A stretch of 64,000 bases of DNA, taken from contig CP060231.1 of the NCBI GenBank assembly GCA_023898625.1, forward strand, positions 737,890-801,889, written 5' to 3'. Source of the stretch: Candidatus Nomurabacteria bacterium (GTDB lineage Bacteria; Patescibacteriota; Saccharimonadia; Saccharimonadales; JAGQNJ01). Of the stretch, positions 1,289-56,713 are shown in pieces (the first letter of the stretch is position 1; every line of letters begins with the position of its first letter). The notes below the pieces were generated by a model. That model ran no database searches. It saw only the letters and a program-made list of their open reading frames with translations, and was not told the origin of the DNA. Made by a program: the position numbers and the translations under genes.

Positions 1289-4200
1289 ATGGGAAATAAG
1301 ATTGTTGCTAGTGATTATGTTCATTTACATAATCATACACAGTATAGTTTACTTGATGGCTTAACAAAGCTGCCAGAATTATTGGATTTTGTCTGTGACT
1401 CTGGTATGCAAGCCATCGCCATGACCGATCATGGCACTCTTTCGGGTGCGATCGAATTCTATAAATTAGCACAAGCAAAACAAATCAAACCGATAATTGG
1501 CATAGAAACATATGTTGCTTCGCGAAAACATACTGACAAAGACCCGGTAAAAGATAAGCAGAGATATCATTTGATTTTGCTGGCAATGAACAATACTGGC
1601 TATCAAAATTTAATGAAGCTTAGTACTATTGCAAATCTCGACGGGTATTACTATTTCCCACGGATTGATCATGATTTACTTGAACAATATAGCGAAGGGG
1701 TCATCGCATTAAGTGCGTGTATGGGGGGTGAGCTTGGCGACGCATTGAAGAATGGACAATACAAAACAGCCAAACAGATTGCTACGTGGTACCAGAAAAC
1801 TTTCAAAGATCGGTATTATTTGGAGATCCAGGATCACGGACATCCAGATAATCCACTATATAACGAAGAGCAGGGAGAGATTAATAAGCAAGTTCTTCAA
1901 ATCGGTAAAGAATTGAACATCAAAGTGGTGGTCACCTGTGATGCTCACTATCTGAAACACGAAGACCAAGACGCTCATGAGGTATTGTTGTGTGTTGGCA
2001 CGGGATCATTATTATCTGACGAAAAACGTATGTCATTGAAGGAGTTTCCGCTTCATGTTACTGACCCTAAAGAAATTATTAAAAGGTGGGGAACAGAACA
2101 TCCTGAGGTAATTATAAATACCAAAGAAATTGCCGATCGTTGCAGTGTTTCGATAAAGCTTGGCGATATTTTGATACCAAAATTTCCTGTCCCCAAAAAA
2201 GAAACCGAAAAGACCTATCTGCACAAGTTAGTTTACCAAGGTTTAGCTTGGAGGTACGGGAATCAATCTTTTGAAAAATCAAAAGAGTTAGGAGTATCCA
2301 AGGCTCAGAAAACCTTACCTGACAATATTGCCGAAAGAGCTTCATATGAATTGAAGGTCATAGATACAATGGGTTTCAATGGGTATTTCTTAATAATTTC
2401 CGATTTTATTAATTGGGGGAAAAACCAAGGTATTGTTTTTGGTCCAGGTCGTGGAAGCGCGGCAGGATCGATTATTGCCTATGCCTTGCGCATCACTGAG
2501 CTTGACCCGATGCAATACGATTTGCTGTTTGAGCGGTTTTTAAACCCAGATCGTATTTCTATGCCAGATATCGATATAGATATCCAAGATACTCGCAGAG
2601 ATGAGGTTATACAATATTGTGTTGAGAAATATGGCTCGGAAAGGGTGGCGAATATTGTTACTTTTGGTCGTATGGCTGCGCGAAATGCTGTACGTGACAC
2701 CGCAAGGGTACTAAATGTTCCATATGCTGATGCCGACAGGCTAGCTAAGATGATTCCACCTCCAGTTCAGGGGCGACACATACCTCTAAAAAAATCTCTG
2801 GAAGATAATTTTGAACTAAAATCAGAATATCAAAATAACCCAGTCGCCAAGCAAGTCTTTGATTTTGCCACTCAACTTGAAGGAACAATAAGATCTCATG
2901 GAGTTCATGCGGCGGGCGTTGTAATTGCACCTGATGATATAGTGAAGTATGCCCCACTTGAGAGGGCGCAAAAGGGGGTGATATCTACTCAATACTCAAT
3001 GGGGCCAATCGAGGAGCTGGGGTTGCTCAAAATGGATTTCTTAGGACTTTCAAACTTATCGATAATAAAAAACGCACTGAGAATTATAAAAAAGGTTCAT
3101 GGTAAAGATATTGATATCGACAATCTGCCTTTAGACGACGATAAAACATACAAACTATTACAAGCCGGCGATACAACAGGAGTATTTCAGTTGGAGTCAG
3201 CGGGTATGAAGCGTTATTTAAAAGAACTAAAGCCTTCGCAGTTTGAAGATGTTGTAGCGATGGTTGCTTTGTATCGACCGGGACCTATGCAGTTTATTGA
3301 TGAATTTATCGGACGAAAACGTGGAACAATGAAGATACAATATCCTCACCCTTCTATGGAAAATGCATTAAAAAACACCTATGGAGTCTTAGTTTATCAA
3401 GAACAGGTTATGCAGATAAGCAAAGAGGTTTGTGGCTTTAGTGGTGGTGAGGCTGACACATTAAGAAAGGCTATTGGCAAGAAGAATGCTGAACTGATGG
3501 CCAAAATGAAAGATAAAATGATTGTTGGTGGCCAAAACCAATCTGGAATCAGTAAATCTGTAATGGAGAAGTTCTGGAAGCAATTAGAAGATTTCGCTGC
3601 ATACTGTTTTAATAAATCTCACGCTGCTTGCTATGGGCTCATTGCCTATCAAACTGCATACTTAAAGGCACATTATCCTTCGGCCTTCATGGCGGCATTG
3701 ATGACTAGTGCTTACGGTGATACTGATCGATTAGCCATAGAGATTAAAGAGTGTAGCAATATGGGTATAGAGGTTTTGCAACCAGACGTTAATGAATCGT
3801 TCTTAGAATTTGCTGTTGTTCCAGAGTCATTGCAAATCCGATTTGGGATGAGTGCTATAAAGAATGTTGGTACGAATGCGGTGGAAGAGATATTAAGAGT
3901 CCGACAACAAAACAGAAACTTCAAAACAATCGATGATTTTTTTGCAAATGTAAACCCAAGTATAGTTAATAGAAAAAATATAGAGAGCTTAATTAAGGCT
4001 GGCGCATTCGATAGTTTGGCAGATAGATTGCAGTTACTTGATAACCTTGATTTGATTATGGCTTTTGCTTCAAAGATTCAAAAAGAACAAAATAGTGGCC
4101 AAACCGATCTATTCGGTAACTTAGATGGTGAATCGGCTAGACCAGAATTAACACTTGGTCCAATTGTTGGTTCCTATAATTCTAATGATAAATTATTTTG

Positions 4201-37567: not shown

Positions 37568-40279
37568 ATGAAAAAGATACTAAATAAACTATCTATAACA
37601 AACAAAGTAAAAATTATAAACTATCTAGTACTATCCCTACTATTCACTATAACTACCCTTATACCATTAACTACCAGCACAGCCAATGCTACCCCACCAG
37701 ACTCTTGTTTTAGTTTTAACTCTGGTACTAATACCATAGAAGACTACTACGATAACGAAAACAACGACTCAGGCCAACCAGCTTGTCCTAAGGCTGTAGA
37801 TATACCTAGTACTATTGGAGGCAATGCAGTCACCACCATCGGCAACTCTGCATTTTATTCCAACCAACTCACCTCCGTCACCATCCCTAGCTCGGTAACC
37901 ACCATCAGCAACTATGCTTTCCAATACAACCAACTCACCTCAGTCACCATCCCGGGCTCTGTCACTACCATCGGTGACTATGCCTTTTATTCCAACCAAC
38001 TCACCTCCATCACCATTCCTAGCTCAGTTACCTCCATCGGCGACTATGCATTCCAAGGCAACCAACTAACCTCCGTCACCATAGCAGGCAATCCCACAAC
38101 CCTCGGTACAAGGATACTTGAATATAACCCCATAACCTCAATCTCATACAATGGCACAGCCTATACCGATACCAGTACACTTGGTGAACAATGTTTTGAC
38201 TTTGATTCCGGTACAGGCACTATAAACGACTACATATTTGCAGATCTAAACCTAATTAAAAGCAGTAGCATTGCTTGTCTAGACAGAAGCGTAGATATAC
38301 CAAGCGCTATAGGTGGGGTTGGTGTCGAGCATATAGGTGCGGTTGCATTCTGTCAAAAAAGTCTGACCAGTGTGGTACTTCCAGCGTCACTACTAACTAT
38401 AGAGAATGGTGGCTGGGGCTGTGGCGGTGCTTTCCGAGACAACCAACTCACCTCCATCACCATCCCTAGCTCAGTTACCACCATCAGCAACTCTGCTTTC
38501 TATGGTAACAAACTCACCTCCGTCACTATTCCTAGCTCGGTCACCACCATCGGCGACTATGCTTTTTCTAACAACCAACTCACCTCCGTCACCATCCCTA
38601 GCTCAGTCACCACCATCGGCGACTATGCTTTTTCTAACAACCAACTCACCTCCGTCACCATCCCTAGCTCAGTCACCACTATCGGCGACCATGCTTTTTC
38701 TTACAACCAACTCACCTCCATGTCTATTCTCGGAAGCCCCACCACACTAGGTAGCGGTATATTAATATCTAACCCCATAGAATCTATTACCATAAATGGT
38801 AATACCTACACTAGTTCATCACCTAATACTGATGCTTGCTTTGAATTTGATACAGGTAATGGCACCATTAATGGATGGCTCCAAGCAGACTTAACCACGG
38901 CTAGAGATGGAGGCTCTGCTTGTCTTAACAAATCAGTCACTATCCCTAACACTATTGGTGGTACATCAGTAACCACTATCGATAGCGGTGCTTTTTCTTC
39001 CAACCAACTCACCTCCATCACCATCCCTAGCTCAGTCGCCACCATCGGTAGCGAGGCTTTTTTTTTCAACCAACTCACCTCCGTCACTATTGGTAATGGG
39101 GTGGCTTCGTTAGATCCTTCTGTGTTTGCGTTCAATTCAGACTATACATTTGCAGATTTTGAGCTAGAAATGCAACAACTGGAGCAACAACACAAAGCTA
39201 CTTGGGCAGACCCTAACAACCCAACACCTGCCGAACAACAAGCTGCTGTGCAAGAAATGTATCTCCTTTACTACAAATTCTACACCTCTGCCTGGTATGT
39301 CCAGGTGTATACAGCTGACCCATCTAACCCTAATAACTTGCAAGATGCTTCTACTTCTATGACCGAAGCAGATACTTTTGAAGTTGATGTAAACGGTAAC
39401 GGCAACACTACTGACCCAGTCTTTTTTGGCGGTCACCTCATCAACCCAGCCTACGCTCAAATCAACTATCAGGATCAATCAGGTAACACCATCTCCCCCT
39501 CTACCAAAGTAACAGGCTATAACACAGACAACAGCACCAACCTAACAACCTACCTAGCTAAAGACAACCCTACCAGTAATATGAGCTTCTACCACAAAGT
39601 AGGTAGTACCGCTCATCTACCTACTCCCCCAAGTATTGCAGGCTACAGTATAGTATCTACTCCTCCTAGTACCCTAACCCTAAATAACACAGGAGCTAAC
39701 GAAATAACCTATACCTACAAAATAGACACTAACTCTGACTCCGACTCCGATGGCATCCCTGACTCCGTAGAGACTAATGCCCCCAACTCTGGTGATGCTA
39801 ACAATGACGGTATAGCCGATAGTACCCAAGCTAACGTAACTAGCTATCTAAACCCAGTAACTAATAACTATGTAGTACTCCAAACATCTAGTGCATGTAG
39901 TATTACTACCACTACTACAACTAGTGAAGATAGCCTATCTACTAAAGACTCTGGCTATGACTACCCAGTAGGCCTAACTAACTTCACTACTGACTGTAAT
40001 ACCCCAGGCTTTACAGCTACTATAAACCTCTACTACTACAACCTAGCTAGTAATAACTATGTTCTCAGAAAACATAACCCTAACAATAACTCTTTCCTTA
40101 CTATAGCTAACCCTACACTAACTAACCTAACTATAGACAATAAACCAGTAACCAAAGTAACCTACCAAGTTACTGACGGACAACAACTAGACATAGACAA
40201 CACCACTAACGGAACCATAGTAGACCCAGTAGGCCTAGCTACATTAGCTGTAGGGAGTCCTAATACGGGGTTGAGATAA
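37568..40279 (+). CDS. Secreted BspA-type leucine-rich-repeat surface protein with TSP3-like Ca-binding repeats
   Basis: 903 aa with a signal peptide. It has three super-repeats, each starting CFxF(D/N)xGTxTI...AC...V(D/T)IPxxIGG and followed by 22-aa LRR_5-type units (QLTSVTIPSSVTTIGDYAFxxN). Next come DSDSDGIPD...DANNDGIAD and a beta-rich C-terminal domain. Confidence 0.8.
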   Translation: MKKILNKLSITNKVKIINYLVLSLLFTITTLIPLTTSTANATPPDSCFSFNSGTNTIEDYYDNENNDSGQPACPKAVDIPSTIGGNAVTTIGNSAFYSNQLTSVTIPSSVTTISNYAFQYNQLTSVTIPGSVTTIGDYAFYSNQLTSITIPSSVTSIGDYAFQGNQLTSVTIAGNPTTLGTRILEYNPITSISYNGTAYTDTSTLGEQCFDFDSGTGTINDYIFADLNLIKSSSIACLDRSVDIPSAIGGVGVEHIGAVAFCQKSLTSVVLPASLLTIENGGWGCGGAFRDNQLTSITIPSSVTTISNSAFYGNKLTSVTIPSSVTTIGDYAFSNNQLTSVTIPSSVTTIGDYAFSNNQLTSVTIPSSVTTIGDHAFSYNQLTSMSILGSPTTLGSGILISNPIESITINGNTYTSSSPNTDACFEFDTGNGTINGWLQADLTTARDGGSACLNKSVTIPNTIGGTSVTTIDSGAFSSNQLTSITIPSSVATIGSEAFFFNQLTSVTIGNGVASLDPSVFAFNSDYTFADFELEMQQLEQQHKATWADPNNPTPAEQQAAVQEMYLLYYKFYTSAWYVQVYTADPSNPNNLQDASTSMTEADTFEVDVNGNGNTTDPVFFGGHLINPAYAQINYQDQSGNTISPSTKVTGYNTDNSTNLTTYLAKDNPTSNMSFYHKVGSTAHLPTPPSIAGYSIVSTPPSTLTLNNTGANEITYTYKIDTNSDSDSDGIPDSVETNAPNSGDANNDGIADSTQANVTSYLNPVTNNYVVLQTSSACSITTTTTTSEDSLSTKDSGYDYPVGLTNFTTDCNTPGFTATINLYYYNLASNNYVLRKHNPNNNSFLTIANPTLTNLTIDNKPVTKVTYQVTDGQQLDIDNTTNGTIVDPVGLATLAVGSPNTGLR
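38444..38707 (+). repeat. In-frame tandem repeat, 4 x 66 bp, units 2-4 nearly identical
   Basis: Units start at 38444, 38510, 38576 and 38642. Units 3 and 4 differ at only about 3-4 positions. Confidence 0.9.
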
Positions 40280-43600: not shown

Positions 43601-44203
43601 CCATTTTCTGAACGGACCACTGTCGGAAGCATGTACATGATCAAGCTTAACCATATGATTGTTGACAAGATCCATGCTCGTTCAACCGGGCCATACACCA
43701 TGGTGACACAACAGCCACTTGGCGGAAAGGCACAAAATGGTGGTCAGCGTTTTGGAGAAATGGAAGTTTGGGCACTAGAGGCTTATGGCGCAGCGAGTAC
43801 TTTACAAGAAATGCTAACTATCAAGTCAGACGATGTTTATGGACGATCTAAGGCCTACGAATCAATAATTAAGCAAACACCTATTATTGGGCCAAAAGTT
43901 CCAGAAAGCTTTAACGTACTAGTTAAGGAGCTACAAGGTCTCGGTTTGAAAGTTGACTTATTGTTGCCAGATAAAGCCGTCGATGCCGAGGATGTTTTGG
44001 CTGAAAATATCAAAGATGAGGCTAGCCATCAATCGGATGTTGATGTTCCAACTCCTGAGATTTCTGATGTTGACATAACAGCTGAAGATGGTGTTGACGA
44101 ATTCGATTTGCTTGAGCTTGATGACCAAGTTCATGCTAGCGTAGGAGCAAATGCAGTTGGTAGCGAATCTGCTATAGATGAAGAAGAAAAGGAGGCAAAA
44201 TAA
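40652..44203 (+). CDS. rpoB: DNA-directed RNA polymerase subunit beta
   Basis: 1183 aa with conserved RpoB blocks (GRHGNKGV, NPLGVPSRMNIGQ, GGQRFGEMEVWALEAYGA). Confidence 0.97.
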   Translation: MAKTSAIASQKRTYFTQKNDILDLPNLVDHQNKSFQWFVEEGLGELLAEISPIDDYTGTKLSLSFKDYHFEDPKTTEAEARENNVSYEAPLKATVVLTNKVTGEVKEQEIYLGDYPWMTSRGTFVINGAERVVVSQLIRSAGVFFTAEQNTSGNLYGAKVIPGRGAWLEFETASNGAMYVKIDRKRKIAVTTLLRALGMTEAKIKEAFAHVDQGKINYIDATIDKDPARGTNEALIEVYRKLRPGDLATVDNARSLIENMFYNYKRFDFSRVGRYKINKRLDLKVPNTVENRVMRLEDLTAIIAEIIRLNNTQEPADDIDSLANRRVKLVGELVQRQFRIGLLRMERNTKDRMSMCEIETVTPGQLINARPIVAAVREFYASSQLSQFMDQINPLSELAAKRRLSSMGPGGLSRERAGFEVRDAHATHYGRICAVETPEGANIGLVLNLGLYAQINEYGFIETPYIKVINAVTAKDAPGHIASQDLEDESGKVLVKAGSKISEADAKKLANVKSKVTWPVKAKVTNKVIYLDASEEEQSVIAGSNEDVGDDGYFVNERVSARSHLVSGEVDADEVTHMDASKKQIIGSSAGLIPFIEKNFVYRSLMGSNQQRQAVPLVQPRRPIVGTGLEGVVASNTGQLVQAIEDGEVIKATADEVIVKYPKAGKVTYNPQHFVRSNEGSSINQKVVVETGDKLKKSDPIIEGMSIDGGELALGKDLIAAFMPWSGYNFEDAIIVSRKLVEDDTLTSIHIVDYMTEVRETKLGPEIVTRDIPNVSDEALRHLDDDGIVTIGADVHPGDILVGKITPKGEQELSSEERLLRAIFGEKAKDVRDTSQRMSNGKHGKVVGVKVFSRDNGHELKAGVIMQIQVFVAQMRKIAVGDKLGGRHGNKGVIARVLPVEDMPFMEDGTPIDIILNPLGVPSRMNIGQLFETHLGMAARALGLHVASPSFDGVSTEKIQDLLNDAGLPKDGKQQLYDGRTGEPFSERTTVGSMYMIKLNHMIVDKIHARSTGPYTMVTQQPLGGKAQNGGQRFGEMEVWALEAYGAASTLQEMLTIKSDDVYGRSKAYESIIKQTPIIGPKVPESFNVLVKELQGLGLKVDLLLPDKAVDAEDVLAENIKDEASHQSDVDVPTPEISDVDITAEDGVDEFDLLELDDQVHASVGANAVGSESAIDEEEKEAK

Positions 44204-47200
44204 TGAAGCGTTACTCTAACGGACCAACTATTTCTGATTTTGACGCAGTTCGATTAGCTGTTGCAAGTGGCGAAGATGTTTTGGATTGGTCATATGGTGA
44301 GGTTACTAAACCAGAAACGATTAACTATAGGACTCAAAAACCTGAACGTGATGGCCTATTCTGTGAAAGAATCTTTGGTCCAGTAAAGGACATTAACCCT
44401 CATGATGCCAAATACAAAGGTGTTCGTTCGCGTGAGGCGGCAGTCGATAAGAATGGCGAAATCGTCACTAGGAGCATTGTGAGACGCGAAAGGATGGGGC
44501 ATATTGCATTAGCTAGTCCTGTGGCACATATTTGGTTTTTGCGAGGAACTCCAAGCGCAGTAGGCTTGTTGCTTGGGATGACTGTTAAGAATCTTGAACG
44601 TGTTACCTATTTTGCAAGCTTTATTGTTAAGTCTGTTGATACCGCAAAGCGGGATCAAATGCTATCTGACAAAGAAGCAGAGTTTGTAGCTGCTCAAGAA
44701 GCTATAAAGGCAAGATATGAATCAGAATCCAAGAAGGACGATGCCAATATTAAGGCATTAGCTGAAATGCAGACCAAAGAACTTGAAGAAGTTGCACAGG
44801 CCTTTGAAGCCTATAAGGCTCAAGTCGAATCTCTTGTTAAGCTAGGTCTACTTAGTGAAAATGATTACTATAATTTGCCTGATGAGCTAGTAGATATTAT
44901 CGAAGTTGGCATGGGTGGCTCAGCAATAAAAGACTTGCTTGAAGAAATTGATCTTAAAGAACTCATTAAAACTTTAACTGAAGAATCTGATGAGGCCAAA
45001 GGTCAACGAAAGAAGAAGTTGATGAAACGATTGCGACTTCTTGAGAGCATGGACGCCGCCAATATTAAACCTAGCTCCATGTGTATTTCGGTATTACCGG
45101 TTATTCCTCCGGATCTTAGGCCAATGGTTCAACTTACTGGTGGTCGATTTGCTACAAGTGATATGAACGACTTATATCGTCGGGTAATTAATCGTAATAA
45201 CCGATTGAAAAAATTAATGGATCTGAACGCTCCGGAAGTGATTTGTCGGAATGAACAACGAATGCTTCAGGAAGCTGTAGATGCCCTGATTGATAACGGC
45301 AATGCCCGTTCAGGACGTGCCGTGGCTGCAACGGGTCAACGTCGTCGATTGAAGTCACTAAGTGATGTCCTAAAAGGAAAGCAAGGACGATTCCGTCAAA
45401 ACTTACTCGGAAAGCGTGTTGATTACTCTGGCCGTTCAGTAATTGTTGCTGGACCAGAACTGTCAATTAATGAGTGTGGACTTCCAAAGATGATGGCCTT
45501 AGAGCTATTTAAGCCATTTGTAATTGGTAGTTTGATAGCTAATGATTATGCTCATAACATCCGTTCTGCGACTCGAATGATAGAAGCCGGAGAAACACCC
45601 GTTTGGGACGCACTCGATGAGGCTATTAAAGGTAAGTATGTCTTACTTAATCGTGCACCATCCTTGCACCGCTTAAGTGTTCAGGCCTTCCAGCCAATAC
45701 TTATTGAGGGTAAGGCAATCCAGCTTCATCCTTTAGTGTGTAAAGGATTCAATGCTGACTTTGACGGAGACCAGATGGCAGTACACTTGCCTCTATCTGA
45801 TTCTGCACAAAAAGAGGCTCAAGAAATTATGGCTGCTAATAAAAACCTGTTGAAGCCGGCAGATGGTTCACCGATATTACATATTGAACAAGATATAGTT
45901 TTGGGTTGTTATTACTTAACCTATGAACGACCTGGTACTAAGAAAGAATCGATGCTGCTTTCTGATCTTGCTGAAGCAGTCATGGCTTTTGATGCAGGTA
46001 AGATTACATTACAAAGCTACGTCAAACTTCCTTTTAGGGGCGAGATAAGATCAACAACTCTTGGTCGATTATTGTTTAACGAAATCTTCCCAGAAGATTT
46101 TGCATTCCAGAATGATACAATGACCAAAAAGAAGCTAAACACAGTTCTTTCGGAAATATATCAAATTTACGGTCAGGCAAAGACTGCAGAGATTGCTGAT
46201 CAGCTTAAGTTTATTGGGTTTGAATATGCAACTAGGTCAGGCTTATCTCTTGGGATGGATGATTTCCGTGATGTTAAGGGACTAGATGCGATAATCAATG
46301 AAGGTGATGAACGAACGGCGCTAATTAGTGAACAATATGAACATGGCTTCATTTCAGAAGAAGAACGCTATCGACACACCGTCGAGAACTGGCTAAAGGT
46401 TGACGCAAAAGTACAAGATACTTTGAGTAAGCAATTTGCCGATGAAGATAGCGCTATGGCAACGGCAGTTGTGTCTGGTGCACGTGGAAACATCGGGCAA
46501 GTCAAGAATGCCGTGGGAATGCTTGGTGTCTCAATGGACACAACCGGGCGAGCAATCGAGTTACCTATTAAATCTGGATATAAAGCAGGCTTGACGCCGT
46601 TAGAGTACTTCACTTCTACTCGTGGTACACGAAAAACCATGATTGATACAGCTCTAAAGACAGCTGACTCAGGATACTTGACTCGTCGTTTAGTAGATGT
46701 TGCACAAGATGTGTTTACGATCGAAGATGATTCAGATCAAGACGACCCCGGATTCGCTTTGAATCGTTCAGATGCTGAAGAAATTGGAACTTCATACTCA
46801 TCTCGACTTGAAGGGCGTTTCTTGGCGGAAGACGTTATCTCTATTGCCAAAAAGGGCGAATTAATCACTAAAGAAATTGCACAAAAGATTGAAGACGATA
46901 AATCATTGGATGGTGTGCGAATCATGAGTGCATTATCCGCTCTTTCAGCAAAAGGTGTGCCTCGTAAGTCATATGGGCTTGACCCAGCTACTGGCCAGCT
47001 AGTATCTGGTCATCATCCAATCGGAGTTATTGCTGCTCAATCTATTGGTGAACCAGGAACACAGCTAACCCTACGTTCATACCACGGTGGTGGTTCGGCT
47101 GCAGCTGATGATATTACTCAAGGTTTACCACGTGTAGAAGAGATTTTTGAAGTTAGAACACCAAAAGGACAAGCATTTCTTTCTGATATATCTGGCACAG

Positions 47201-48033
47201 TTAAAGCTTGGGAAGACGGCGATCACTACGTGGTAGAAGTGAAAGCTAAAGCTGACGAGCCGGTCGAGTATCCTCTCGGTGAACGAAAAGCTCATATTAA
47301 GAATAATGCTGATATCAACATTGGTGACGTTATAGCATCTGAAGAAGAAGGCGCAAATCCATTGATTGCTCCTGTTGCAGGTAAAGCAAAAGTTACTAAG
47401 AAGTCAATTTTCATTACTCCTGGTGAACAGTCAGCAATTCGTTATGAGATTCCTGGATTCAAGCAACTTCAGGTTAAAGATGGCGATGAAGTTGTTGCCG
47501 GACAAAGACTAACCAACGGTTCAATTAATTTGCATGAATTGTTAAGACTTCAGGGTGTTGAAGCGACACAACGTTATATAATGAACGAAATCTTGAAGAT
47601 ATTTGCTTCTCAGGGTCAAGACATCTCTGACAAACACCTTGAGATTATCGTTCGACAAATGTTTAGTCGAGTTCAAATCGAAGATATTGGTGACAGTGAT
47701 TTTGTAACAGGCGACATTGCAAGTAAGATTGCCGTTCAGGATGCTAACGAAAAGCTTCAAGCCTCTGGTAAACAGCCTGTACAATATAGTCAGTTGTTGT
47801 TGGGAATCACTAAGGCATCCCTATCTACAGAGTCCTTCTTGAGCGCCGCGAGCTTCCAAGACACAACACGTGTATTGATTTCTGCCGCGACTAGTGGACG
47901 AGTCGATAAGCTGTATGGTCTGAAAGAGAATGTTATTTTGGGTCGTAAGATTCCTGTTGGTACAGGCTATAATTCTGAAAGTTCAATGGACGAGAGTCAG
48001 ATACAACAAGAGCAAACTACTGCTGTGGCCTAG
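44203..48033 (+). CDS. rpoC: DNA-directed RNA polymerase subunit beta'
   Basis: 1276 aa with the catalytic [12 protein letters not shown] motif and bridge-helix and trigger-loop blocks. Its start overlaps the rpoB stop (TAATG). Confidence 0.97.
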
Positions 48034-48047
48034 ATAAGATTGCAGAT

Positions 48048-48076
48048 TTGCCAAAATTACATCAATTTGTTAAAAT
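48048..48076 (+). promoter_or_regulatory. Putative str-operon promoter
   Basis: TTGCCA (48048-48053), a 17-nt spacer, then TAAAAT (48071-48076). Confidence 0.4.
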
Positions 48077-48159
48077 GTTCAAGTTAAATAAGTAGTCCGA
48101 GCCTCTGCGATTGGCATTTGCAGTGTTGCGGTAGATTACAACTCAGTAAAGGAGAATCA

Positions 48160-48573
48160 ATGCCAACAATCAATCAATTAGTGCGCAAACCACGCGCCAA
48201 GGTGACCAAGAAATCGAAGTCGCCAGCTCTTCACCGTGTGGTGAATAATTTAAAAACAACGAATTACGAGAAACCATCACCGTTTAAGCGAGGTGTTTGT
48301 GTCAAGGTGACTACCAAGACACCAAAAAAACCAAACTCTGCGCTTCGAAAGGTTGCCCGTGTTCGTTTACAAAATGGTCATGAGGTTTGGGCTTATATCG
48401 GTGGCGAAGGTCATAACTTGCAAGAACACGCCGTAGTAATGATTAGGGGCGGTCGAGTAAAAGACCTTCCTGGTGTTCGTTACCATATTGTACGTGGTGC
48501 ATTAGATTTACAAGGTGTAGAAAACCGTAAACAAGGTCGCTCAAAGTACGGTACCAAGAAAGCAGGTAAATAA
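48160..48573 (+). CDS. rpsL: 30S ribosomal protein S12 (with a ~13-aa internal insertion)
   Basis: [12 protein letters not shown]...KRGVC...[11 protein letters not shown]...[10 protein letters not shown]...[13 protein letters not shown]. The start at 48160 is preceded by AAGGAG. Confidence 0.95.
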
Positions 48574-48575
48574 TC

Positions 48576-49052
48576 ATGCCTAGGAAGAAAACTAAGAGTC
48601 TAGTTCGTGATATTCAGCCAGATCGGTTATATAACAGCGTTCAAGTTCAAAAAGTAATCAATAGAGTAATGCTTAATGGTAAGAAGCAAATTGCTGAAAG
48701 GCTAGTTTATGGTGGAATGCAAAAATCTGCCGATAAACTAAAGGTTAAAAATCCACTGGATGTTTTTGAGCAAGCATTGAAAAATATTCAGCCAAGTCTA
48801 GAAACTCGTTCTCGTCGTGTTGGTGGTGCTAATTATCAGATCCCTTTTGAGGTTAAAGGGCAACGTCAACAACATTTAACAATTATGTGGTTTGTTCAAG
48901 CTTCTCGTGCAAGAAGTGGTATAAGTATGGAAGACCGAATAGCGTTAGAGTTAGTCGATGCCTATAACAATACCGGCTCTGCAGTTAAGAAAAAAGAGGA
49001 TACTCACAAAATGGCCGAAGCCAACCGTGCTTTTGCTCACTTTGCCAGGTAA
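48576..49052 (+). CDS. rpsG: 30S ribosomal protein S7
   Basis: 158 aa with an S7 core (GKK..AE.I.Y.A ... RRVGGANYQIP.EV). Confidence 0.95.
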   Translation: MPRKKTKSLVRDIQPDRLYNSVQVQKVINRVMLNGKKQIAERLVYGGMQKSADKLKVKNPLDVFEQALKNIQPSLETRSRRVGGANYQIPFEVKGQRQQHLTIMWFVQASRARSGISMEDRIALELVDAYNNTGSAVKKKEDTHKMAEANRAFAHFAR

Positions 49053-49056
49053 TCAT

Positions 49057-49398
49057 ATGAGTTTAAAGTGTATCTATGAAGGACTGTGTCCAGCCTATAT
49101 GGCTTGCGAATCTGCAACAGATGCGTTAGATGCGTTTGTTGACAAGAATTCGGTAGATCAAAGTTGGAAGCAAGAACAAGAACTAATAGTTCAAATGAGA
49201 AAGTACGCACTATTGTCTGTAGCAGAAAGAATTGACTGTGGTCGCTTTCAAGATAATGAAGAATGTGCTGATAATGTTTCACAATATTCTTGTCCATTGC
49301 CATTTGGTTTAGTAGAAAATACTGCTTTTGGACCTCCAGAAGAAATGCGACGTTCAGCAATACAAATTGTAAATAATAACAAGCCAAAAGGATTTTAA
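49057..49398 (+). CDS. Hypothetical 113-aa Cys-containing protein embedded between rpsG and fusA
   Basis: The ATG lies 4 nt after the rpsG stop. The ORF fills the whole rpsG-fusA gap and ends 13 nt before fusA. It has six Cys residues. I recognised no homology. Confidence 0.5.
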   Translation: MSLKCIYEGLCPAYMACESATDALDAFVDKNSVDQSWKQEQELIVQMRKYALLSVAERIDCGRFQDNEECADNVSQYSCPLPFGLVENTAFGPPEEMRRSAIQIVNNNKPKGF

Positions 49399-49411
49399 TT
49401 AAGGAGAGGTA

Positions 49412-51499
49412 ATGGCAGAGAAAAAGATAGAACTAAGTAAATATAGAAACATCGGTATTATTGCTCATATTGATGCCGGCAAAACTACCACCACAGAAGG
49501 AATTTTGTTTCGAACAGGTTTGAAGCACAAAATTGGGGCCGTCCATGAAGGCGAGACAACTACCGACTGGATGACCCAAGAACGCGAGCGAGGCATAACA
49601 ATTACATCCGCTGCGGTCACTTGTTACTGGAAGGATCATAAGATTAACATCATTGATACCCCAGGACACATCGATTTTACGGCAGAAGTGGAACGTTCAT
49701 TACGCGTACTAGATGGTGCTGTTACCGTATTTGACGGCAAAATGGGTGTAGAGAGTCAGTCAGAAACTGTCTGGCGTCAGGCCGATAAGTATGGTGTACC
49801 ACGTCTTTGTTTTATTAATAAGATTAATCAAACAGGTGGTGACTTTTATAAGAGTTTGGATAGTATTCATAATCGTCTTAACAAACATGCCTTCCCAATT
49901 CATTTACCAATCGGTTTTGAACAAAGTATCAACGGTGTAGTTGACTTGATTACTATGAAGGCCTACACCTATAAAGAATTTACAGATAATGAATTGGTTG
50001 AGGGTGAGATACCAGAAGATATGCTTGATAAAGCCAAGAAGTATCGTAGTTTGTTGATCGAAAATGCTGTAGCCGAAGATGAGGTAATGCTAGAGAAGTT
50101 CTTTGAAGTCGGCGAAGAAGGACTGAGTGTCGAAGAAATTAAGCAAGCCGTCCGAACTGCAGTATTAACGGGTAAGTTTTATGCCGTTACCGGTGGTGAT
50201 GGTCGTGGCGTGATTGTTGAAAAACTACTCGATGCTGTTAATGACTTTTTACCATCGCCTGTAGATCGTGGTTCAGTTTGGGGTACTCACCCTAAGACCG
50301 ACGAGGAGCTAGAGCGAAAACCAGAAGAAACTGGAGCTATGGCCGGAATCGCCTTTAAGATTGCTACTGACCCATTTGTTGGTAAGCTTTGTTTCGTACG
50401 CGTGTACTCAGGAAAACTAGAGGCGGGATCGTATGTATTCAACAGTTCAACAGGGCAAAAAGAACGTATTGGCCGACTTGTGCGAATGCAAGCTGACAAA
50501 AGAGAAGACATTACCGAAGTCTCTGCAGGAGATATTGCTGCCATTGTTGGCCTAAAAGGTACTACTACCGGAAATACTCTTTGTGATCAAAACAACCCAG
50601 TCATCCTAGAGTCTATTACCTTCCCAGAGCCACCTGTGTCGATTGCCATTGAACCAAAGACAAAGAGTGACCAAGAAAAGATGAGCCTAGCTCTTCAACG
50701 ATTGGCGGAAGAAGATCCAACCTTTAGGGTTCATGTTGATGATGATACTGGACAGACAATTATTAGTGGTATGGGCGAGCTACATCTTGAAATTCTAGTT
50801 GATCGAATGAAGCTTGAATTTAGTGTAGAAGCAAATATTGGTCAACCACAAGTGGCCTACCGCGAAACAATCCGTAAAGATGCCGTTGAGGTTGAAGGAA
50901 AATTTGTCCGACAAAGTGGTGGACGTGGTCAATATGGACACGTTTGGTTACGTTTGTCGCAGAATGAAGCTGGTAAAGGATTTGAATTCATTAACTCTAT
51001 TAAGGGTGGCGTTGTGCCTGCAGAGTACATCAACCCAGTTAAGGCGGGTATTGAAGAAGCAATGGCTAACGGTGTATTGGCGGGTTATCCAGTTGTAGAT
51101 ATCAAGGCAGAACTTTACGACGGTAGCTACCACGATGTTGACTCTAGCGAAATGGCCTTCAAAATTGCAGGTTCAATGGCGCTACAACAAGGAGTTAAGC
51201 AAGCAAATCCGGTACTACTAGAGCCAATAATGAAAGTCGTCGTAGTTACTCCAGAAGAATTTATGGGTGACGTGATTGGTGACTTAAACAGTAAGCGTGG
51301 CCGTATTGAATCTATGGAAGACCTAACGACCGGCATTAAAGAAATCACATCATTCGTGCCTCTTGGAGAGATGTTTGGATATACAACAAACCTTCGTTCA
51401 ATGACTCAAGGTCGCGCAAGTTCAAGCATGGAACTTGATCATTATGCCGATGTTCCAGGCCATGTCGCCGAGGCTATTGTTGCAAAAAATAGCAAATAA
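49412..51499 (+). CDS. fusA: Elongation factor G
   Basis: 695 aa with G-domain motifs [17 protein letters not shown] and NKID. A strong SD AAGGAGAGG precedes the start. Confidence 0.97.
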
Positions 51500-51622: not shown

Positions 51623-52714
51623 ATGCAACAGATATATACTGAATCATTCTTGAGGGGTTATGCTCGTAAGACTATGAGATCTATACAAGACATAACCCAA
51701 CACCCATATAAACATGTAATTGAGCAAAGACTCAAGATAATTCAGTTCTATGATGATTTCGGGGAACAAGCCACCAGACAAGCTTTTAGCGTAAGTAGGA
51801 GCACTGTGTTCAGCTGGAAGAGGCGTCTAAAGGATAACAATGGCTCACTCAGATGTTTAGCTCCAAAGAGCACTGCACCAAAACACAAACGCAAGCGAAT
51901 GGTAGATATGCGTATTACTAACTTTATTCTAGAACAAAGAAGCTTACACCCTAAGCTAAGTAAAGATAAGCTAGCCGTATTACTCAAAGATGAGTGTACA
52001 GCTTGGAATCTAAAACCACCTTCGGCATCTACCGTAGGTAGAATCCTCAAAGACCTTAAGTTTCAAGGCCTATTACCAAAATATACCAGGTTAACCGTTT
52101 CAGGTGCTACCGGCAAACTACTTGAGAAACAAAGTCGTAAGCCAAGACTCAATAAACAACGCAGGAATGGTTATCAGCCTGAGCAACCAGGAGATATGCT
52201 ACAGATAGACACTATTGTTAAGTTTATAAACGGTATACGCCGTTATGTACTTACAGCAGTAGATTACAAAGGTAGATTCGGCTTTGCCTATGGCTATACT
52301 AGCCCCAGTAGTACCAACGCAGCAGACTTCCTGAACAAACTGCAAGCTGTTACCCCATTTGAGATCAGACGAGTGCATCATGACAATGGTAGTGAGTTCT
52401 ACAAACACTTCATAAGAGCCTGTGATGAACGAAACATTGAACAGCTCTGGAACTATCCCAAAAGACCTAAGAATAACGGAATGGTTGAAAGATTTAACCG
52501 TAGCATCCAAGAAGAGTTTATAGACTGGAACCTAGATAATCTAGCCTATGACCTTGAGGATTTCAATAATTCATTGATGGACTGGTGTATATGGTATAAC
52601 ACAAAAAGACCACATTATGGACTTGGTTTAAAAAGTCCAATGCAGTACTTACTAGAAGTGTTACAATTAAGCCAACAGGAGTCCAGAATGTTATGGACGG
52701 ATACAACTACTTGA
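51623..52714 (+). CDS. DDE-type (integrase core, rve) transposase, IS481-family-like
   Basis: 363 aa with an N-terminal HTH (STVFSWKRRL). The catalytic region runs LQIDT... HHDNGSEF ... NGMVERFNRSIQEEF ... YNTKRPHYGLGLKSP. Confidence 0.85.
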   Translation: MQQIYTESFLRGYARKTMRSIQDITQHPYKHVIEQRLKIIQFYDDFGEQATRQAFSVSRSTVFSWKRRLKDNNGSLRCLAPKSTAPKHKRKRMVDMRITNFILEQRSLHPKLSKDKLAVLLKDECTAWNLKPPSASTVGRILKDLKFQGLLPKYTRLTVSGATGKLLEKQSRKPRLNKQRRNGYQPEQPGDMLQIDTIVKFINGIRRYVLTAVDYKGRFGFAYGYTSPSSTNAADFLNKLQAVTPFEIRRVHHDNGSEFYKHFIRACDERNIEQLWNYPKRPKNNGMVERFNRSIQEEFIDWNLDNLAYDLEDFNNSLMDWCIWYNTKRPHYGLGLKSPMQYLLEVLQLSQQESRMLWTDTTT

Positions 52715-52805
52715 CAAATGTATGAATTAATGCTAATGTTAAGTGAATACAAAATTTAGATACATTTAGATATTTGTATTTATGTTAACGATTAAGGAGA
52801 AATAT

Positions 52806-53387
52806 ATGTTAGAGAAAAGAGAGATACTAGACCTTGAATTATTTGAAGGTGCTGGTGTTAAGCATGATCAAATTGCATTAATTAGTGCGGCAACTGACGC
52901 AATTGTTGCATGCAGTGATTGGGCAGAAAGACAGAAAGTTGCCGTCGCAAGTTTATTAGCTAGTTGCGTCACTATTGATAGTGATATACTGGGTGGAGAT
53001 GTTGATTTTGATGATTCAGCCTGGCAAGACACTGTGTCTAGACTAGTTGCTGCTGGAGTTGTTGATGCTTCAGCGTATTACGAAGAAATAGACAGTTCTT
53101 GTTTATTTGATGAGGATAGTGATCCTACAACAATTTCAAGAACTAAGCTTGAAAGTATACTCTCCAGCGCAGAAGAATATAAACGGCAACAAAGTATCGT
53201 TCCTGAGGGAGATGACGAATCAGAGGACTATTCTGACGATTTTCTAGAACTTCTTGCTGATTCACGGGGCGACGATATTGTTGAATCGCGAGACTATACT
53301 AGTGGCGACGAAGAATCTAACGGAGAAGATGATCTCGATGATGATCAACAAAATGATGTCGTTATCATTGACGGCGTAGAATTTTAG
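52806..53387 (+). CDS. Hypothetical, extremely acidic protein (193 aa)
   Basis: I chose the ATG at 52806 because AAGGAG lies 7 nt upstream. The C-terminal half is packed with Asp/Glu runs (GDDESEDYSDD, GDEESNGEDDLDDDQQND). No known domain recognised. Confidence 0.55.
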   Translation: MLEKREILDLELFEGAGVKHDQIALISAATDAIVACSDWAERQKVAVASLLASCVTIDSDILGGDVDFDDSAWQDTVSRLVAAGVVDASAYYEEIDSSCLFDEDSDPTTISRTKLESILSSAEEYKRQQSIVPEGDDESEDYSDDFLELLADSRGDDIVESRDYTSGDEESNGEDDLDDDQQNDVVIIDGVEF

Positions 53388-53429
53388 TTATTTGTATATT
53401 AAAATTGTTAAATTTTGGATATCTGATCT

Positions 53430-55019
53430 ATGAAATCGAACCCTGAGCTTATTGATGAGGTTTTTGAGTATGTATCCCCAATAGCAGTTGCTTACGGTGG
53501 TGATATATCATCTGTCATGTCTTCACTGGCTTTAACTAAGTCGATTCTTCAAACCGCTCATCCAGACAGAGGTTTTGAATATTCTGATTCATTGGTTAAT
53601 GCAAATAGGCTATATTCGTCAATTAAAGACTCAAACAAAGTACAACACGAGATTCTAACAGAATGTACCGAAGACACAGTGGAGCCTCTCGGTAAGTTAC
53701 GAAAAGCGGATGTTTTGAACCAAAATATTGATGTATTGATTGAGTCAATAACTAAAGAAACCAGACAAGATACACATGACGTATCTGATACTTCTCACTA
53801 CATTGTCCCAAGTGATGTTGATATAGACGAAGACAGTAGTGATCATGATCTTTCCTTTTTACTGAACACAAAGATTATCGATCAGTTAAAAGAACTAGAT
53901 GGTGAGGATCTTAATTTTGTGATTAAACAATTAAGGAAATATACTTTAAAAAATCAAAATTTAGAAATTCCGGATATATCTAGTAGTCAATGGTCAGTAC
54001 TATTTGATAGAATTCAAAATGGTGATGTTTCATGGGAATCTCTAAATAAGTCGAATGGAGAGGTCGCTAGCGTGCATCTTAAAAACGCAGAAGATCGAGT
54101 GTTACCTTTTTTGAGTTTATTTAGTCCAGAATCAAGCTATATTTTCCCAAAAAACTGGTATAGGTCCTTCAGTGGTTTGGTATATGCCCCCATGTTTGAT
54201 ATTTATGATTACGAGGATCACCAAACAAGAATTGCGCGTAATAAAAAATCATATTGGCAAAACTTTAAAATCTTAAATGTACAGAATGGCATTGTTGTAG
54301 ATGAAAGACAAATAGATTACGGGGACAGAGAGTCAATTCAACTTGTAGATGGTTTGCCAACAAAGAAGCACCGATCGATAATGGAATTAGTTAATGATGT
54401 GCTAAAGGAGATAGGTAGCGACGATAGCTTTTTGGTCACAAATTCTGAAAACGGAGACCAAATCGGTCCTGCAAATTTTGTATTTTTTGTCAAAAATCAA
54501 ATAGCTACGGTAGTCGGTACTGACTTGCAACATGCTAAACACACCATAAATAACAAGATACAGCGTGAGGATGTGGCTATTGATGACGGAGTATATATGA
54601 TTAAGGCTGGTAAACCACAAGGTGCTACTGAATATGATAAACAAAACTTACCTCTCGCTCTGATAAAATTAAAAGAGATGAAAATTCCAAAACGAAATAG
54701 CTACAAGGGTTTCGCTCTGGTAGGTGAGTGCTCATATGTTCTTGATGCTAATGACGATGTTTCAACAATGATACGCAATAACCAGATTATGGATGTATGT
54801 TTAGATCAGAAACCTGACACCGAACAAATTAACGGAAGGCAGAGAATAGAAGTTATGTTAAAAATCTTGTTACAGGATTCAATATCTAAAGTAACTCAAA
54901 GCTTATTAATGAAACGTGATTATATGAAGGTAAGTAGAATGTTGGCGGTTAATAAGGATAATCAGATGATCAATATTAATGAGCTTGACCCATATAGGCT
55001 TACGTTTATTAGCGAGTAA
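53430..55019 (+). CDS. Hypothetical protein (529 aa)
   Basis: A long uninterrupted ORF on the same strand with codon usage like the core genes. I saw no Walker, HExxH, DxD or other motif. Confidence 0.6.
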   Translation: MKSNPELIDEVFEYVSPIAVAYGGDISSVMSSLALTKSILQTAHPDRGFEYSDSLVNANRLYSSIKDSNKVQHEILTECTEDTVEPLGKLRKADVLNQNIDVLIESITKETRQDTHDVSDTSHYIVPSDVDIDEDSSDHDLSFLLNTKIIDQLKELDGEDLNFVIKQLRKYTLKNQNLEIPDISSSQWSVLFDRIQNGDVSWESLNKSNGEVASVHLKNAEDRVLPFLSLFSPESSYIFPKNWYRSFSGLVYAPMFDIYDYEDHQTRIARNKKSYWQNFKILNVQNGIVVDERQIDYGDRESIQLVDGLPTKKHRSIMELVNDVLKEIGSDDSFLVTNSENGDQIGPANFVFFVKNQIATVVGTDLQHAKHTINNKIQREDVAIDDGVYMIKAGKPQGATEYDKQNLPLALIKLKEMKIPKRNSYKGFALVGECSYVLDANDDVSTMIRNNQIMDVCLDQKPDTEQINGRQRIEVMLKILLQDSISKVTQSLLMKRDYMKVSRMLAVNKDNQMININELDPYRLTFISE

Positions 55020-55531: not shown

Positions 55532-56713
55532 ATGGCTGACTTCGATCGAAGCAAACCGCATGTTAACGTAGGCACAATGGGTCACGTTGACCACGGTAAA
55601 ACAACATTAACGGCAGCAATTACCCATACGCTTTCAAAGCGTTTGCCAAGCGACGTAAACAAACCTATAAATTACGATCAAATTGATAACGCCCCTGAAG
55701 AAAAACAACGCGGTATTACCATTGCTGTTTCTCACCAGGAATATGAAACCGAAAAGCGACACTATGCTCACGTTGATATGCCAGGACACGCTGACTACAT
55801 CAAGAACATGATTACCGGCGCAGCCCAGGTTGATGGGGCTGTATTGGTTGTTTCGGCAGCGGATGGTCCTATGCCACAAACTCGCGAGCACGTTCTTTTA
55901 GCTCGACAAGTTGGTGTTCCTAAAATTGTTGTATTCCTAAACAAGATGGATCTTGCAGACCCAGAGCTTGTTGAACTTGTTGAAATGGACGTCCGTGAAC
56001 TACTTGAAAAGAATGGTTTTGATGAAGATGCTCCAATTATCAAGGGTTCTGCTACTAAAGCTCTTGAAGGTTCAGAAGCTGATATGGATGCAGTTATGGA
56101 ACTTGTTAAGGCTATGGATGAATTTATTCCAGAACCAAAGCGTGATCTTGATAAGCCATTTATGATGGCCATTGAAGATGTATTCTCAATCAAGGGTCGT
56201 GGTACGGTAGCTACTGGTCGTATTGAACAAGGTATCGTAAAGATTAACGACGAAGTTGAGATTGTCGGTATCCGAGACACTAAGAAGAGTGTTGTTACTG
56301 GTGTTGAGATGTTCAAGAAGAATCTTGATCAAGGTCAAGCTGGCGATAACGTTGGTATTTTGCTTAGAGGTATTGAGCGCGATGATATAGAGCGCGGTCA
56401 AGTTTTGGCTAAACCAGGAACAATTACTCCTCATACAGAGTTTGACGCAGAAGTTTATGTGTTAACTAAAGAAGAAGGTGGACGACACACACCATTCTTT
56501 AAAGGATATAAGCCTCAGTTCTACTTCCGTACAACGGATGTGACTGGCGAGGTTGAACTACCTGCCGATAAAGAGATGGTGATGCCTGGCGATACTGTTA
56601 CGTTTAAGGTCAAATTGATCCAGCCAATTGCTATGGACCAAGGTCAACGTTTTGCTATCCGTGAAGGTGGTCGAACCGTTGGCGCTGGTGTCGTAACAAA
56701 GATTACTAAGTAA
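55532..56713 (+). CDS. tuf: Elongation factor Tu
   Basis: 393 aa with [18 protein letters not shown] and NKMD motifs and canonical domains II and III. Confidence 0.98.

Follow-up and report, generated by a model that had tools for sequence, protein, structure and literature searches.

The gene string encoding ribosomal proteins S12 and S7 and elongation factor G (EF-G) is among the most rigid arrangements in bacterial genomes. The ribosomal proteins bL31, bL32, bL33, bL36 and the 'C+' form of uS14 are small C4 zinc proteins that are basic, near-universal and slow-evolving, and that fold as zinc-ribbon or zinc-knuckle beta-hairpins. Fusidic-acid resistance proteins of the FusB/FusC type are two-domain zinc-binding proteins that bind EF-G and have a helical domain and a Cys-ligated zinc site, and DksA has a C4 zinc finger, both Cys pairs of which follow the coiled coil. 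Here we describe an open reading frame (ORF) of 113 amino acids (aa) that lies between rpsG and fusA on the + strand of a 64-kb window (the whole stretch of DNA that was analysed, 64,000 nucleotides (nt) of contig CP060231.1), in which the gene order is rpoB, rpoC, rpsL, rpsG, ORF, fusA.

The ORF at 49057-49398 is a real gene that has been called previously and is uncharacterised; its exact product is already in NCBI as USN95446.1, 'hypothetical protein H6793_03920'. The explanation that we favour, and that we regard as fairly probable taken as a whole, is that the ORF is a genuine accessory gene of a Saccharibacteria (order Saccharimonadales) genome and that the rpsG–fusA junction is a hypervariable, recombination-exchanged slot inside the str operon. 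An earlier note on this DNA had described the spacer as filled by the ORF, and its coordinates were exact: the rpsG-fusA spacer is 359 bp, the ORF ATG lies 4 nt past the S7 stop, and the ORF stop lies 13 nt short of the fusA ATG. The features of the junction and its flanking genes, in window coordinates, are:

48160..48573, + strand: rpsL, ribosomal protein S12, 137 aa; the listed frame opens at an upstream TTG, and the start at MPTINQL was placed from 137-aa Ribosom_S12_S23 genes, at the equivalent position in relatives
48576..49052, + strand: rpsG, ribosomal protein S7, 158 aa (Pfam Ribosomal_S7, E = 4.7e-54), stop TAA at 49050-49052
49047..49050, + strand: putative Shine-Dalgarno-like element AGGT, in which the final S7 codon, AGG, is joined by the first base of the stop, 7 nt before the ORF ATG
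49057..49398, + strand: the ORF, 113 aa, ATG at 49057, TAA at 49396-49398
49037..49387, minus strand: antisense ORF, 116 aa, rejected as a gene
49401..49409, + strand: Shine-Dalgarno of fusA, AAGGAGAGG, read from the sequence, 2 nt before the ATG
49412..51499, + strand: fusA, elongation factor G, 695 aa (Pfam GTP_EFTU, EFG_III, EFG_IV, EFG_C)

The ORF is laid out for translational coupling to S7 upstream and to EF-G downstream, as the earlier note had suggested, and the same geometry is seen at both ends in relatives. Members of its family start 0-13 nt past the S7 stop and end in a TAATG overlap, an 11-nt overlap with the fusA start (several distant members) or a gap of at most 16 nt to fusA; AAGG, GAGG or GGGG replaces AGGT at the equivalent site in other members, and in the relatives L001 and L002 the fusA Shine-Dalgarno element falls within the ORF, the stop of which shares TAATG with the fusA ATG. 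Selection for coupling probably explains the well-kept ORF boundaries. The stoichiometric co-expression with S7 and EF-G that had been read from this arrangement does not follow from coupling alone. A fusion of S7 and the ORF through frameshifting or readthrough was rejected, as the frame of the ORF relative to rpsG is +1, 0 and +2 in the three closest relatives. In the window the sequence AGGTAAT stands at both ORF borders; a target-site duplication was rejected as a general feature, the distant members being without the AGGTAAT repeat, and a shared Shine-Dalgarno-plus-stop design accounts for it more simply.

Purifying selection acts on the ORF. Comparison of the window, L001 and L002 gave ratios of non-synonymous to synonymous substitution rates (dN/dS) of 0.19-0.33 at dS values of 0.5-0.9, with dN significantly lower than dS (Fisher p = 3e-9 to 5e-5). 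The sense frame was open across 95% of the window spacer compared with a mean of 36% in shuffled sequences, none of 300 of which reached 95%. Codon-usage log-likelihood of the ORF was 0.138, within the range of the window genes (0.172 +/- 0.048) and in agreement with the core-like codon usage previously noted, compared with approximately -0.7 for the other two sense frames. A rival explanation is that the spacer holds no protein gene on this strand, being either a regulatory-RNA spacer or the site of a real antisense gene at 49037-49387. The antisense frame is indeed open across 99% of the spacer in the window itself, and the junction RNA has a slight folding advantage over shuffled sequences (z = -1.84; equalled by 3 of 100). 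However, the antisense frame is interrupted in L001 and L002 (longest open stretch 0.57 and 0.47 of the spacer, respectively), its codon score of 0.011 lies below that of every training gene, the substitutions are codon-periodic with dN much lower than dS, and no Rfam family matched in the junction at E <= 1, leaving this explanation scarcely credible. The earlier note had singled out the minus-strand frame as the one that might prove conserved; it is broken in relatives, so the sense ORF, which is conserved in relatives at the rpsG–fusA junction, stands. Scanning of the junction for terminators and promoters gave no terminator, and promoter-like sites were at background level.

A single-sequence search of 5.8 billion proteins returned three clusters with 99%, 76% and 67% identity to the window protein, all encoded between S7 and EF-G (in L002 the annotated start is an internal Met, and an in-frame ATG 5 nt past the S7 stop gives back the MSLKC N-terminus). 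A profile search through all 1.84 billion representative proteins added five true distant homologs of 110-135 aa (hmmsearch E-values 6e-27 to 1e-5), a further hit, P0006 (903 aa), being discarded as a false-positive low-complexity repeat protein, and a second profile search, against the 5.8-billion set, gave eight clusters. A scan of GTDB genomes with back-translated peptide patterns from the close-relative alignment found nothing, the patterns being specific to the window's subgroup. The family (family A) is very small, with about 12 distinct sequences, and all ten members with known context (the window, P0001-P0003, P0007-P0011 and L116; the count excludes P0004 and P0005) sit between rpsG and fusA. 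This strict synteny, which holds down to approximately 21% identity, together with the purifying selection bears out the earlier proposal of a lineage-specific protein gene. Searches of the window protein and 11 family members against Pfam, NCBIfam, PDB sequences, PADLOC and PHROGs gave no significant match: the best Pfam match had E = 0.12, short of the cut-off, the best NCBIfam match scored 15.6 bits against a cut-off of 170 bits, PDB sequence searches gave no match at E <= 1, and no PADLOC or PHROGs family (anti-phage defence and phage proteins) was found at E <= 0.1 for any of 11 members.

An alignment of 11 sequences (21-99% identity to the window protein) showed nine invariant residues (A20, L24, C61, C79, L81, P82, G84, E87 and G112) and seven nearly invariant residues (M1, C11, P12, R48, N88, G92 and F113), and the motifs of the family are C-P at helix 1, [DG]-C after helix 2 and C-x-L-P-x-G-x-x-E. 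In a codon alignment of nine members, the ten invariant residues (initiator Met aside) are each encoded by two to four synonymous codons, and the constraint therefore acts on the protein. The product is acidic, with an isoelectric point (pI) of 4.6, and its six cysteines, reported previously, were located at C5, C11, C17, C61, C70 and C79. The closest relatives keep only C5, C11, C17, C61 and C79, C70 being specific to the window's own cluster, and the whole family keeps only C11, C61 and C79 (C61 and C79 invariant, C11 nearly so), with H or D three residues before C11 in distant members. Identity of the family ORF drops fast as the hosts diverge: where S7 is 99%, 93%, 91% and 78% identical, the ORF is 69%, 64%, 42% and about 31% identical, respectively.

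The junction was surveyed in an S7-anchored scan of one genome per GTDB species, to which scanning of metagenomes added 80 loci. Spacers of 15-51 nt separate rpsG from fusA in outgroup bacteria, consistent with the earlier statement that the spacer is normally short; in most Saccharimonadales it measures 200-450 nt, occasionally 650-2200 nt. Crown-clade Saccharimonadales mostly carry one small sense-strand ORF in the junction; such ORFs start 0-13 nt past the S7 stop, and most reach the fusA ATG or stop within roughly 25 nt of it. Of 34 junctions analysed, 27 have a sense strand that stays open through at least 85% of the spacer and 5 have an antisense strand that does so; the average for shuffled sequences is about 47%. 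Clustering of the 81 unique junction ORFs put the window's family first in size, with 12 sequences, and left most of the others as singletons. Named families are rare (DUF520/YajQ, 23S_rRNA_IVP/bAvd-like and SPW among 37 GTDB-derived junction ORFs scanned).

Composition of the junction ORFs is skewed towards acidic, Cys-containing proteins. In 31 orphan junction ORFs, Cys makes up 2.95% of residues compared with 0.54% in the window's long ORFs, the median pI is 4.8, 20 have at least three Cys and 28 have a pI below 6. The Cys count is bimodal in 51 unique junction ORFs, 21 having 0-1 Cys and 27 having 4-6, where background composition predicts 0.15 ORFs with at least four. In the Cys class, an N-terminal C-x(2-7)-C precedes at least 25 residues (usually about 40-70) without Cys, after which one or two more Cys occur; the first two Cys fall within C-x(<=7)-C in 25 of the 27 ORFs, compared with 8.3 expected, a number reached in none of 2000 shuffles. 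About half of the junction ORFs are acidic proteins with this bipartite layout, which the window protein matches (C5/C11 … C61/C79). A neighbour-joining tree of S7 and the EF-G N-terminus placed Cys-class and family-A ORFs in one crown clade, where other bipartite-Cys ORFs neighbour members of the window's family and where Cys-poor ORFs and compact, ORF-less junctions of 2-40 nt are interleaved. A single superfamily of all bipartite-Cys ORFs is not claimed, since iterated hidden Markov model searches and hhalign failed to join them; alignment of the window's family with the others by hhalign gave probabilities of at most 2.1%, with the marginal exception of L029 at 34.6%.

These data bear on a second rival, in which selection acts mainly on translation across the expanded spacer, by which ribosomes leaving rpsG reach the fusA start, and the bridging peptide would do little or nothing of its own. 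The limits of the ORFs are kept far better than their content, a sense strand without any interruption in the spacer is nearly universal, the slot is filled by dozens of sequences with no recognisable relation to each other (about 40% of them without Cys), and the C-terminal residues are dictated by the Shine-Dalgarno and start region of fusA, all of which would be expected of a bridge. A pure bridge role is nevertheless contradicted by the amino-acid-level constraint, that is, by dN/dS significantly below 1 and by the persistence of invariant and nearly invariant positions at 21-34% identity while their codons vary, and by the compact junctions of relatives, which work at 2-40 nt and make a long bridge unnecessary. 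The bipartite Cys layout and the acidity are strongly non-random, and DUF520/YajQ and 23S_rRNA_IVP genes occupy the same slot, although these start 40-112 nt past the S7 stop and end 45-223 nt before fusA. We therefore consider the bridge rather improbable.

Replacement of one junction ORF by another was seen directly in pairs of loci with similar flanks. Spacers were compared by local blastn and tblastx, identity from global alignment having been abandoned because it saturated at a random level of about 0.62. S7 and EF-G of L126 and L034 are 95% identical, and the flanking DNA is 92% and 85% identical up to the first and last codons of the ORF, whereas no reading frame gives any similarity between the two ORF interiors. 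Systematic screening brought up about ten further pairs in which flanks of at least 80% identity enclose unrelated ORFs (no tblastx similarity inside), whereas family-A pairs stay detectable at equal flank identity. In a sliding-window comparison over 44059-50200, identity between the window and L001 is 93-98% through rpoC and rpsL but drops to 73-79% in the ORF and 86-88% in fusA; for L001 and L002 it is 80-89% upstream and rises to 90-94% in fusA. L001 is thus a mosaic, and the identity profile of the three sequences places a recombination breakpoint at or near the rpsG/ORF junction. Other occupants of the slot are DUF520/YajQ (L062, L072, L074, L148), 23S_rRNA_IVP (L036) and an SPW-repeat protein (L065); these genes lie on the same strand and at the same insertion point, are unrelated in sequence to the window ORF, start 40-751 nt past the S7 stop, end 45-223 nt before fusA and are not tightly coupled.

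Hypervariability and cassette replacement between conserved flanks, the recombination mosaic, the small size and acidity of the proteins, and a position adjoining genes for antibiotic targets (S12 and EF-G) are also compatible with a protein engaged in an arms race, namely a small protective or immunity-type cassette that, for example, shields EF-G or the ribosome from translation inhibitors of an actinobacterial host or of competitors, its diversity being kept by diversifying or balancing selection. Such a role would explain the hypervariability. On the other hand, selection within the window's lineage is purifying and not positive, neither PADLOC nor PHROGs gave a match, no toxin or partner gene is adjacent, and nothing ties the protein physically to EF-G, so that this explanation appears quite unlikely. 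A bolder version, in which the junction of crown-clade Saccharimonadales would be a dedicated diversity locus of ancient, mutually unrecognisable, zinc-clamped acidic alleles that natural transformation shuffles between lineages over rpsG and fusA homology arms and that stay diverse because they engage a rapidly changing partner, is very unlikely in our judgement; the partner might be, for example, translation-targeting molecules of actinobacterial hosts, and the protein would then protect EF-G or the ribosome.

Further observations were made at junctions of other Saccharimonadales. Nanosynbacter-like Saccharibacteria carry a 164-aa DUF520/YajQ gene approximately 80-110 nt past the S7 stop (L062, L072, L074, L148), and L063, L064 and L149 carry an unrelated orphan gene of 224-231 aa instead; the flanks are 94-96% and 86-87% identical, indicating another replacement at the rpsG–fusA site. 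In L036, the gene at 3521-3886 encodes a 23S_rRNA_IVP/bAvd-like four-helix-bundle protein, and its tree neighbours carry family-A ORFs. L102, L112 and L118 have their own small family of Cys-free junction ORFs (116-123 aa) with a common 'YEL…REIQFMEKA' region, and the Cys-free junction ORFs of L105 and L167 look alike by eye, with no phmmer link at E <= 1e-3. L089, a relative with a family-A ORF at rpsG–fusA, has a second ORF between rpsL and rpsG (3274-3519) that encodes an acidic 81-aa protein whose five Cys follow the bipartite layout as well (C6-x7-C14 … C42-x5-C48, C62); L090, on a contig near-identical to that of L089, has only an unrelated 45-aa ORF there (3382-3519). Six loci (L069-L071, L073, L155 and L157) share a 176-nt spacer with no ORF longer than 20 aa that is conserved at 96-98%, like its flanks, and that might hold a non-coding element; in L068, a close relative of this group, the spacer is only 34 nt.

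The structure of the window protein was predicted with AlphaFold2, which gave a predicted local distance difference test (pLDDT) score of 65 with four sequences and of 75.6 with the eleven-sequence alignment, with a predicted template modelling score (pTM) of 0.63 for the latter. The model is all-alpha with no strands, with helices at residues 3-7, 12-30, 35-59, 62-65, 85-91 and 94-107. The features of the protein, in window coordinates, are:

49069..49107, + strand: N-terminal Cys cluster C5-x5-C11-P12-x4-C17, from alignments; C11-P12 is nearly invariant and stands directly before helix 1
49090..49233, + strand: predicted helical hairpin, residues 12-59 (helix 12-30, turn 31-34, helix 35-59), from AlphaFold2 with the 11-sequence alignment
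49237..49239, + strand: invariant C61, directly after helix 2, from alignments
49240..49290, + strand: variable acidic linker, residues 62-78, with the non-conserved C70; indels and length polymorphism among relatives
49291..49332, + strand: most conserved motif, C79-P-L-P-F-G-L-V-E-N-T-A-F-G92, with C79, L81, P82, G84 and E87 invariant and N88 and G92 nearly so
49390..49395, + strand: C-terminal G112-F113 codons GGA TTT, from the 3' junction sequences of nine members

The hairpin includes the invariant A20 and L24 and the nearly invariant R48, and was modelled with block-mean pLDDT values of 91-96 for residues 11-50 and of 81 for residues 51-60; residues 65-79 are predicted to be disordered, at low confidence (pLDDT < 50). 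In the model, C11-P12 and C61 both lie at the open end of the antiparallel hairpin, and C79 opens the most conserved motif. At least three conserved potential ligand residues are therefore present (C61, C79 and C11, with C5 and C17 in addition in the window's subgroup), and a Cys-ligated metal site, most likely for zinc, or a disulfide clamp is plausible from the model. The Cys and Pro codons of the N-terminal cluster vary synonymously among members. Conservation of G112-F113 is probably at the nucleotide level, because GGA forms the fusA Shine-Dalgarno in distant members. The check by structure prediction for a zinc-ribbon or ferredoxin-like fold, which the earlier note had proposed, came out against both: the cysteines are spaced C-x5-C-x5-C instead of CxxC, the model is without strands and no Pfam zinc-ribbon family matched, and an all-alpha model with no significant Foldseek neighbour does not agree with the beta-alpha-beta-beta-alpha-beta order of a ferredoxin-like fold. 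Foldseek searches of PDB with the first, poorer model gave a best E-value of 2.1, and searches of PDB and BFVD with the improved model gave best E-values of 2.5 and 0.93, respectively, none being <= 0.001; the matches were generic helical proteins and were treated as meaningless.

The earlier note had proposed a lineage-specific protein associated with the ribosome or with translation, of which the restriction to one lineage held and the association with translation was not supported. In this rival, the protein would be a binding partner of the ribosome, S7 or EF-G, produced in concert with them, for example as a zinc-binding accessory ribosomal protein, an acidic chaperone for S7 or S12, or an EF-G-binding factor. 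The fixed rpsG–fusA position in every family member with context, the coupling geometry at both ends and the conserved cysteines would fit such a protein, and a product of pI 4.6 could partner basic ribosomal proteins. However, a partner of conserved surfaces is expected to be conserved itself, whereas among the window, L001 and L002 the ORF is 69-76% identical compared with 97-99% for S7 and EF-G; dN/dS of S7 and EF-G is near 0.01, and the non-synonymous rate of the ORF is 20-30 times theirs. The ORF is also absent from nested relatives with 2-40 nt junctions, unrelated ORFs replace it between near-identical flanks, no ribosomal or translation-factor family matched in Pfam, NCBIfam or PDB, and no ribosome component gave a significant fold match. 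Position is what speaks for a translation component, and acidity, rate, absence and replaceability count against it; we consider it unlikely.

Several points weigh against the accessory-gene and exchangeable-slot explanation, or limit parts of it. Only three Cys are kept family-wide, and the segment with C79 is modelled at low confidence (pLDDT < 50), which would weaken the case for a Cys-based clamp. The coupling is read from geometry. Homology of the window's family to the other bipartite-Cys ORFs is not demonstrable, the likeness being one of resemblance only, and the bipartite architecture might have arisen by convergence or from a bias in the composition of the ORFs that survive in the slot. 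With about 40% of the junction ORFs containing 0-1 Cys, the slot is not reserved for Cys proteins. The neighbour-joining tree, which is built on about 360 residues, is weakly resolved.

The favoured explanation, an accessory gene in an exchangeable slot, suggests the following mechanism. The ORF would be expressed from the str-operon transcript by ribosomes passed on from rpsG, which would then be handed to fusA. Its product would fold as a helical hairpin plus two short C-terminal helices, and C11, C61 and C79, aided in the window's subgroup by C5 and C17, could clamp this fold via a metal ion, most likely zinc, or a disulfide. The near-invariant rpsG and fusA genes may serve as universal homology arms. 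Natural competence is documented in Saccharibacteria, which incorporate DNA through homologous recombination using arms of about 1 kb (PMC10633639) and could swap the cassette in the same manner, with rpsG and fusA as the arms. The product is thus likely to be an exchangeable, highly expressed accessory protein and no core part of the ribosome.

Inside the S12–S7–EF-G string, an entire clade of ultrasmall epibionts with reduced genomes accommodates a small gene that changes fast, is exchangeable and is coupled on both sides. If the explanation is correct, universal housekeeping genes can be homology arms for accessory-gene exchange in competent bacteria with few mobile elements. The Saccharibacteria ('microbial dark matter') would also gain a new class of small, highly expressed cysteine proteins, and the junction would be a natural place, with high expression, for insertions in genetic work on them; deletion and allele-swap tests are feasible, as Saccharibacteria are transformable (PMC10633639). 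No description of a gene or variable slot at rpsG–fusA in Saccharibacteria or other Patescibacteria (the candidate phyla radiation, CPR) was found in the literature.

Upstream of the junction, a consensus scan marked one candidate start of the transcript that bears the ORF, and no terminator-like site was found by the scan on the + strand from there through the end of fusA:

48048..48076, + strand: promoter-like site TTGCCA-17-TAAAAT with an upstream TG, 5' of rpsL; from the consensus scan only, which gave such sites at background level

In the surroundings of the operon, the usual fusA–tuf adjacency is broken at 51623-55019, tuf lying only at 55532-56713. Between fusA and tuf lie an rve-family integrase/transposase gene (51623-52714; HTH_32 and rve/rve_3 domains) and two orphan ORFs without a Pfam match (52782-53387, 201 aa; 53430-55019, 529 aa). 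Just upstream of rpoB, 37568-40279 encodes a protein of 903 aa that contains five regions of leucine-rich repeats of the BspA type (LRR_5, E = 2e-103). The closest GTDB relatives of the window by S7 (about 85% identity) are metagenome-assembled genomes of Saccharibacteria/Saccharimonadales. The NCBI record of USN95446.1 is labelled 'Candidatus Nomurabacteria bacterium', a label that looks wrong because the adjacent S7 is closest (85-88%) to Saccharibacteria/Saccharimonadales genomes.

Compared with the known systems, the window protein is, like bL31, bL32, bL33, bL36 and uS14, small, with two separated groups of Cys, and is encoded in a ribosomal-protein operon and presumably co-expressed with the translation apparatus. 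Unlike the zinc-binding ribosomal proteins, it is acidic (pI 4.6), confined to part of one order, fast-evolving and predicted to be all-helical, and the Pfam and NCBIfam models of those proteins do not match it. With FusB/FusC it shares a link to EF-G that here consists only of a position beside fusA; FusB-type proteins are roughly twice as long, are not encoded at rpsG–fusA, and have no sequence or structural match to the window protein. DksA/TraR proteins are likewise small and acidic, with an antiparallel helical hairpin and cysteines near its base, but in the window protein the cysteines lie on either side of a hairpin that is shorter (19 + 25 residues), no Pfam family (the DksA/TraR zinc finger included) matched any of 11 members at E <= 0.1, and Foldseek gave no match.

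At the level of the locus, no description of a single coupled ORF exchanged inside the str operon was found in the literature on Saccharibacteria and Patescibacteria (CPR). Flexible genomic islands of the replacement type, such as O-antigen loci, share with this locus near-identical flanks, non-homologous content, a breakpoint and a competent lineage (PMC10633639), and differ from it in that the cassette here is a single ORF of 55-135 aa inside the str operon, coupled on both sides. With conserved flanks, a non-homologous interior and evidence of recombination all found at the rpsG–fusA junction, its behaviour, as judged from sequence comparison, resembles that of a replacement-type variable locus.

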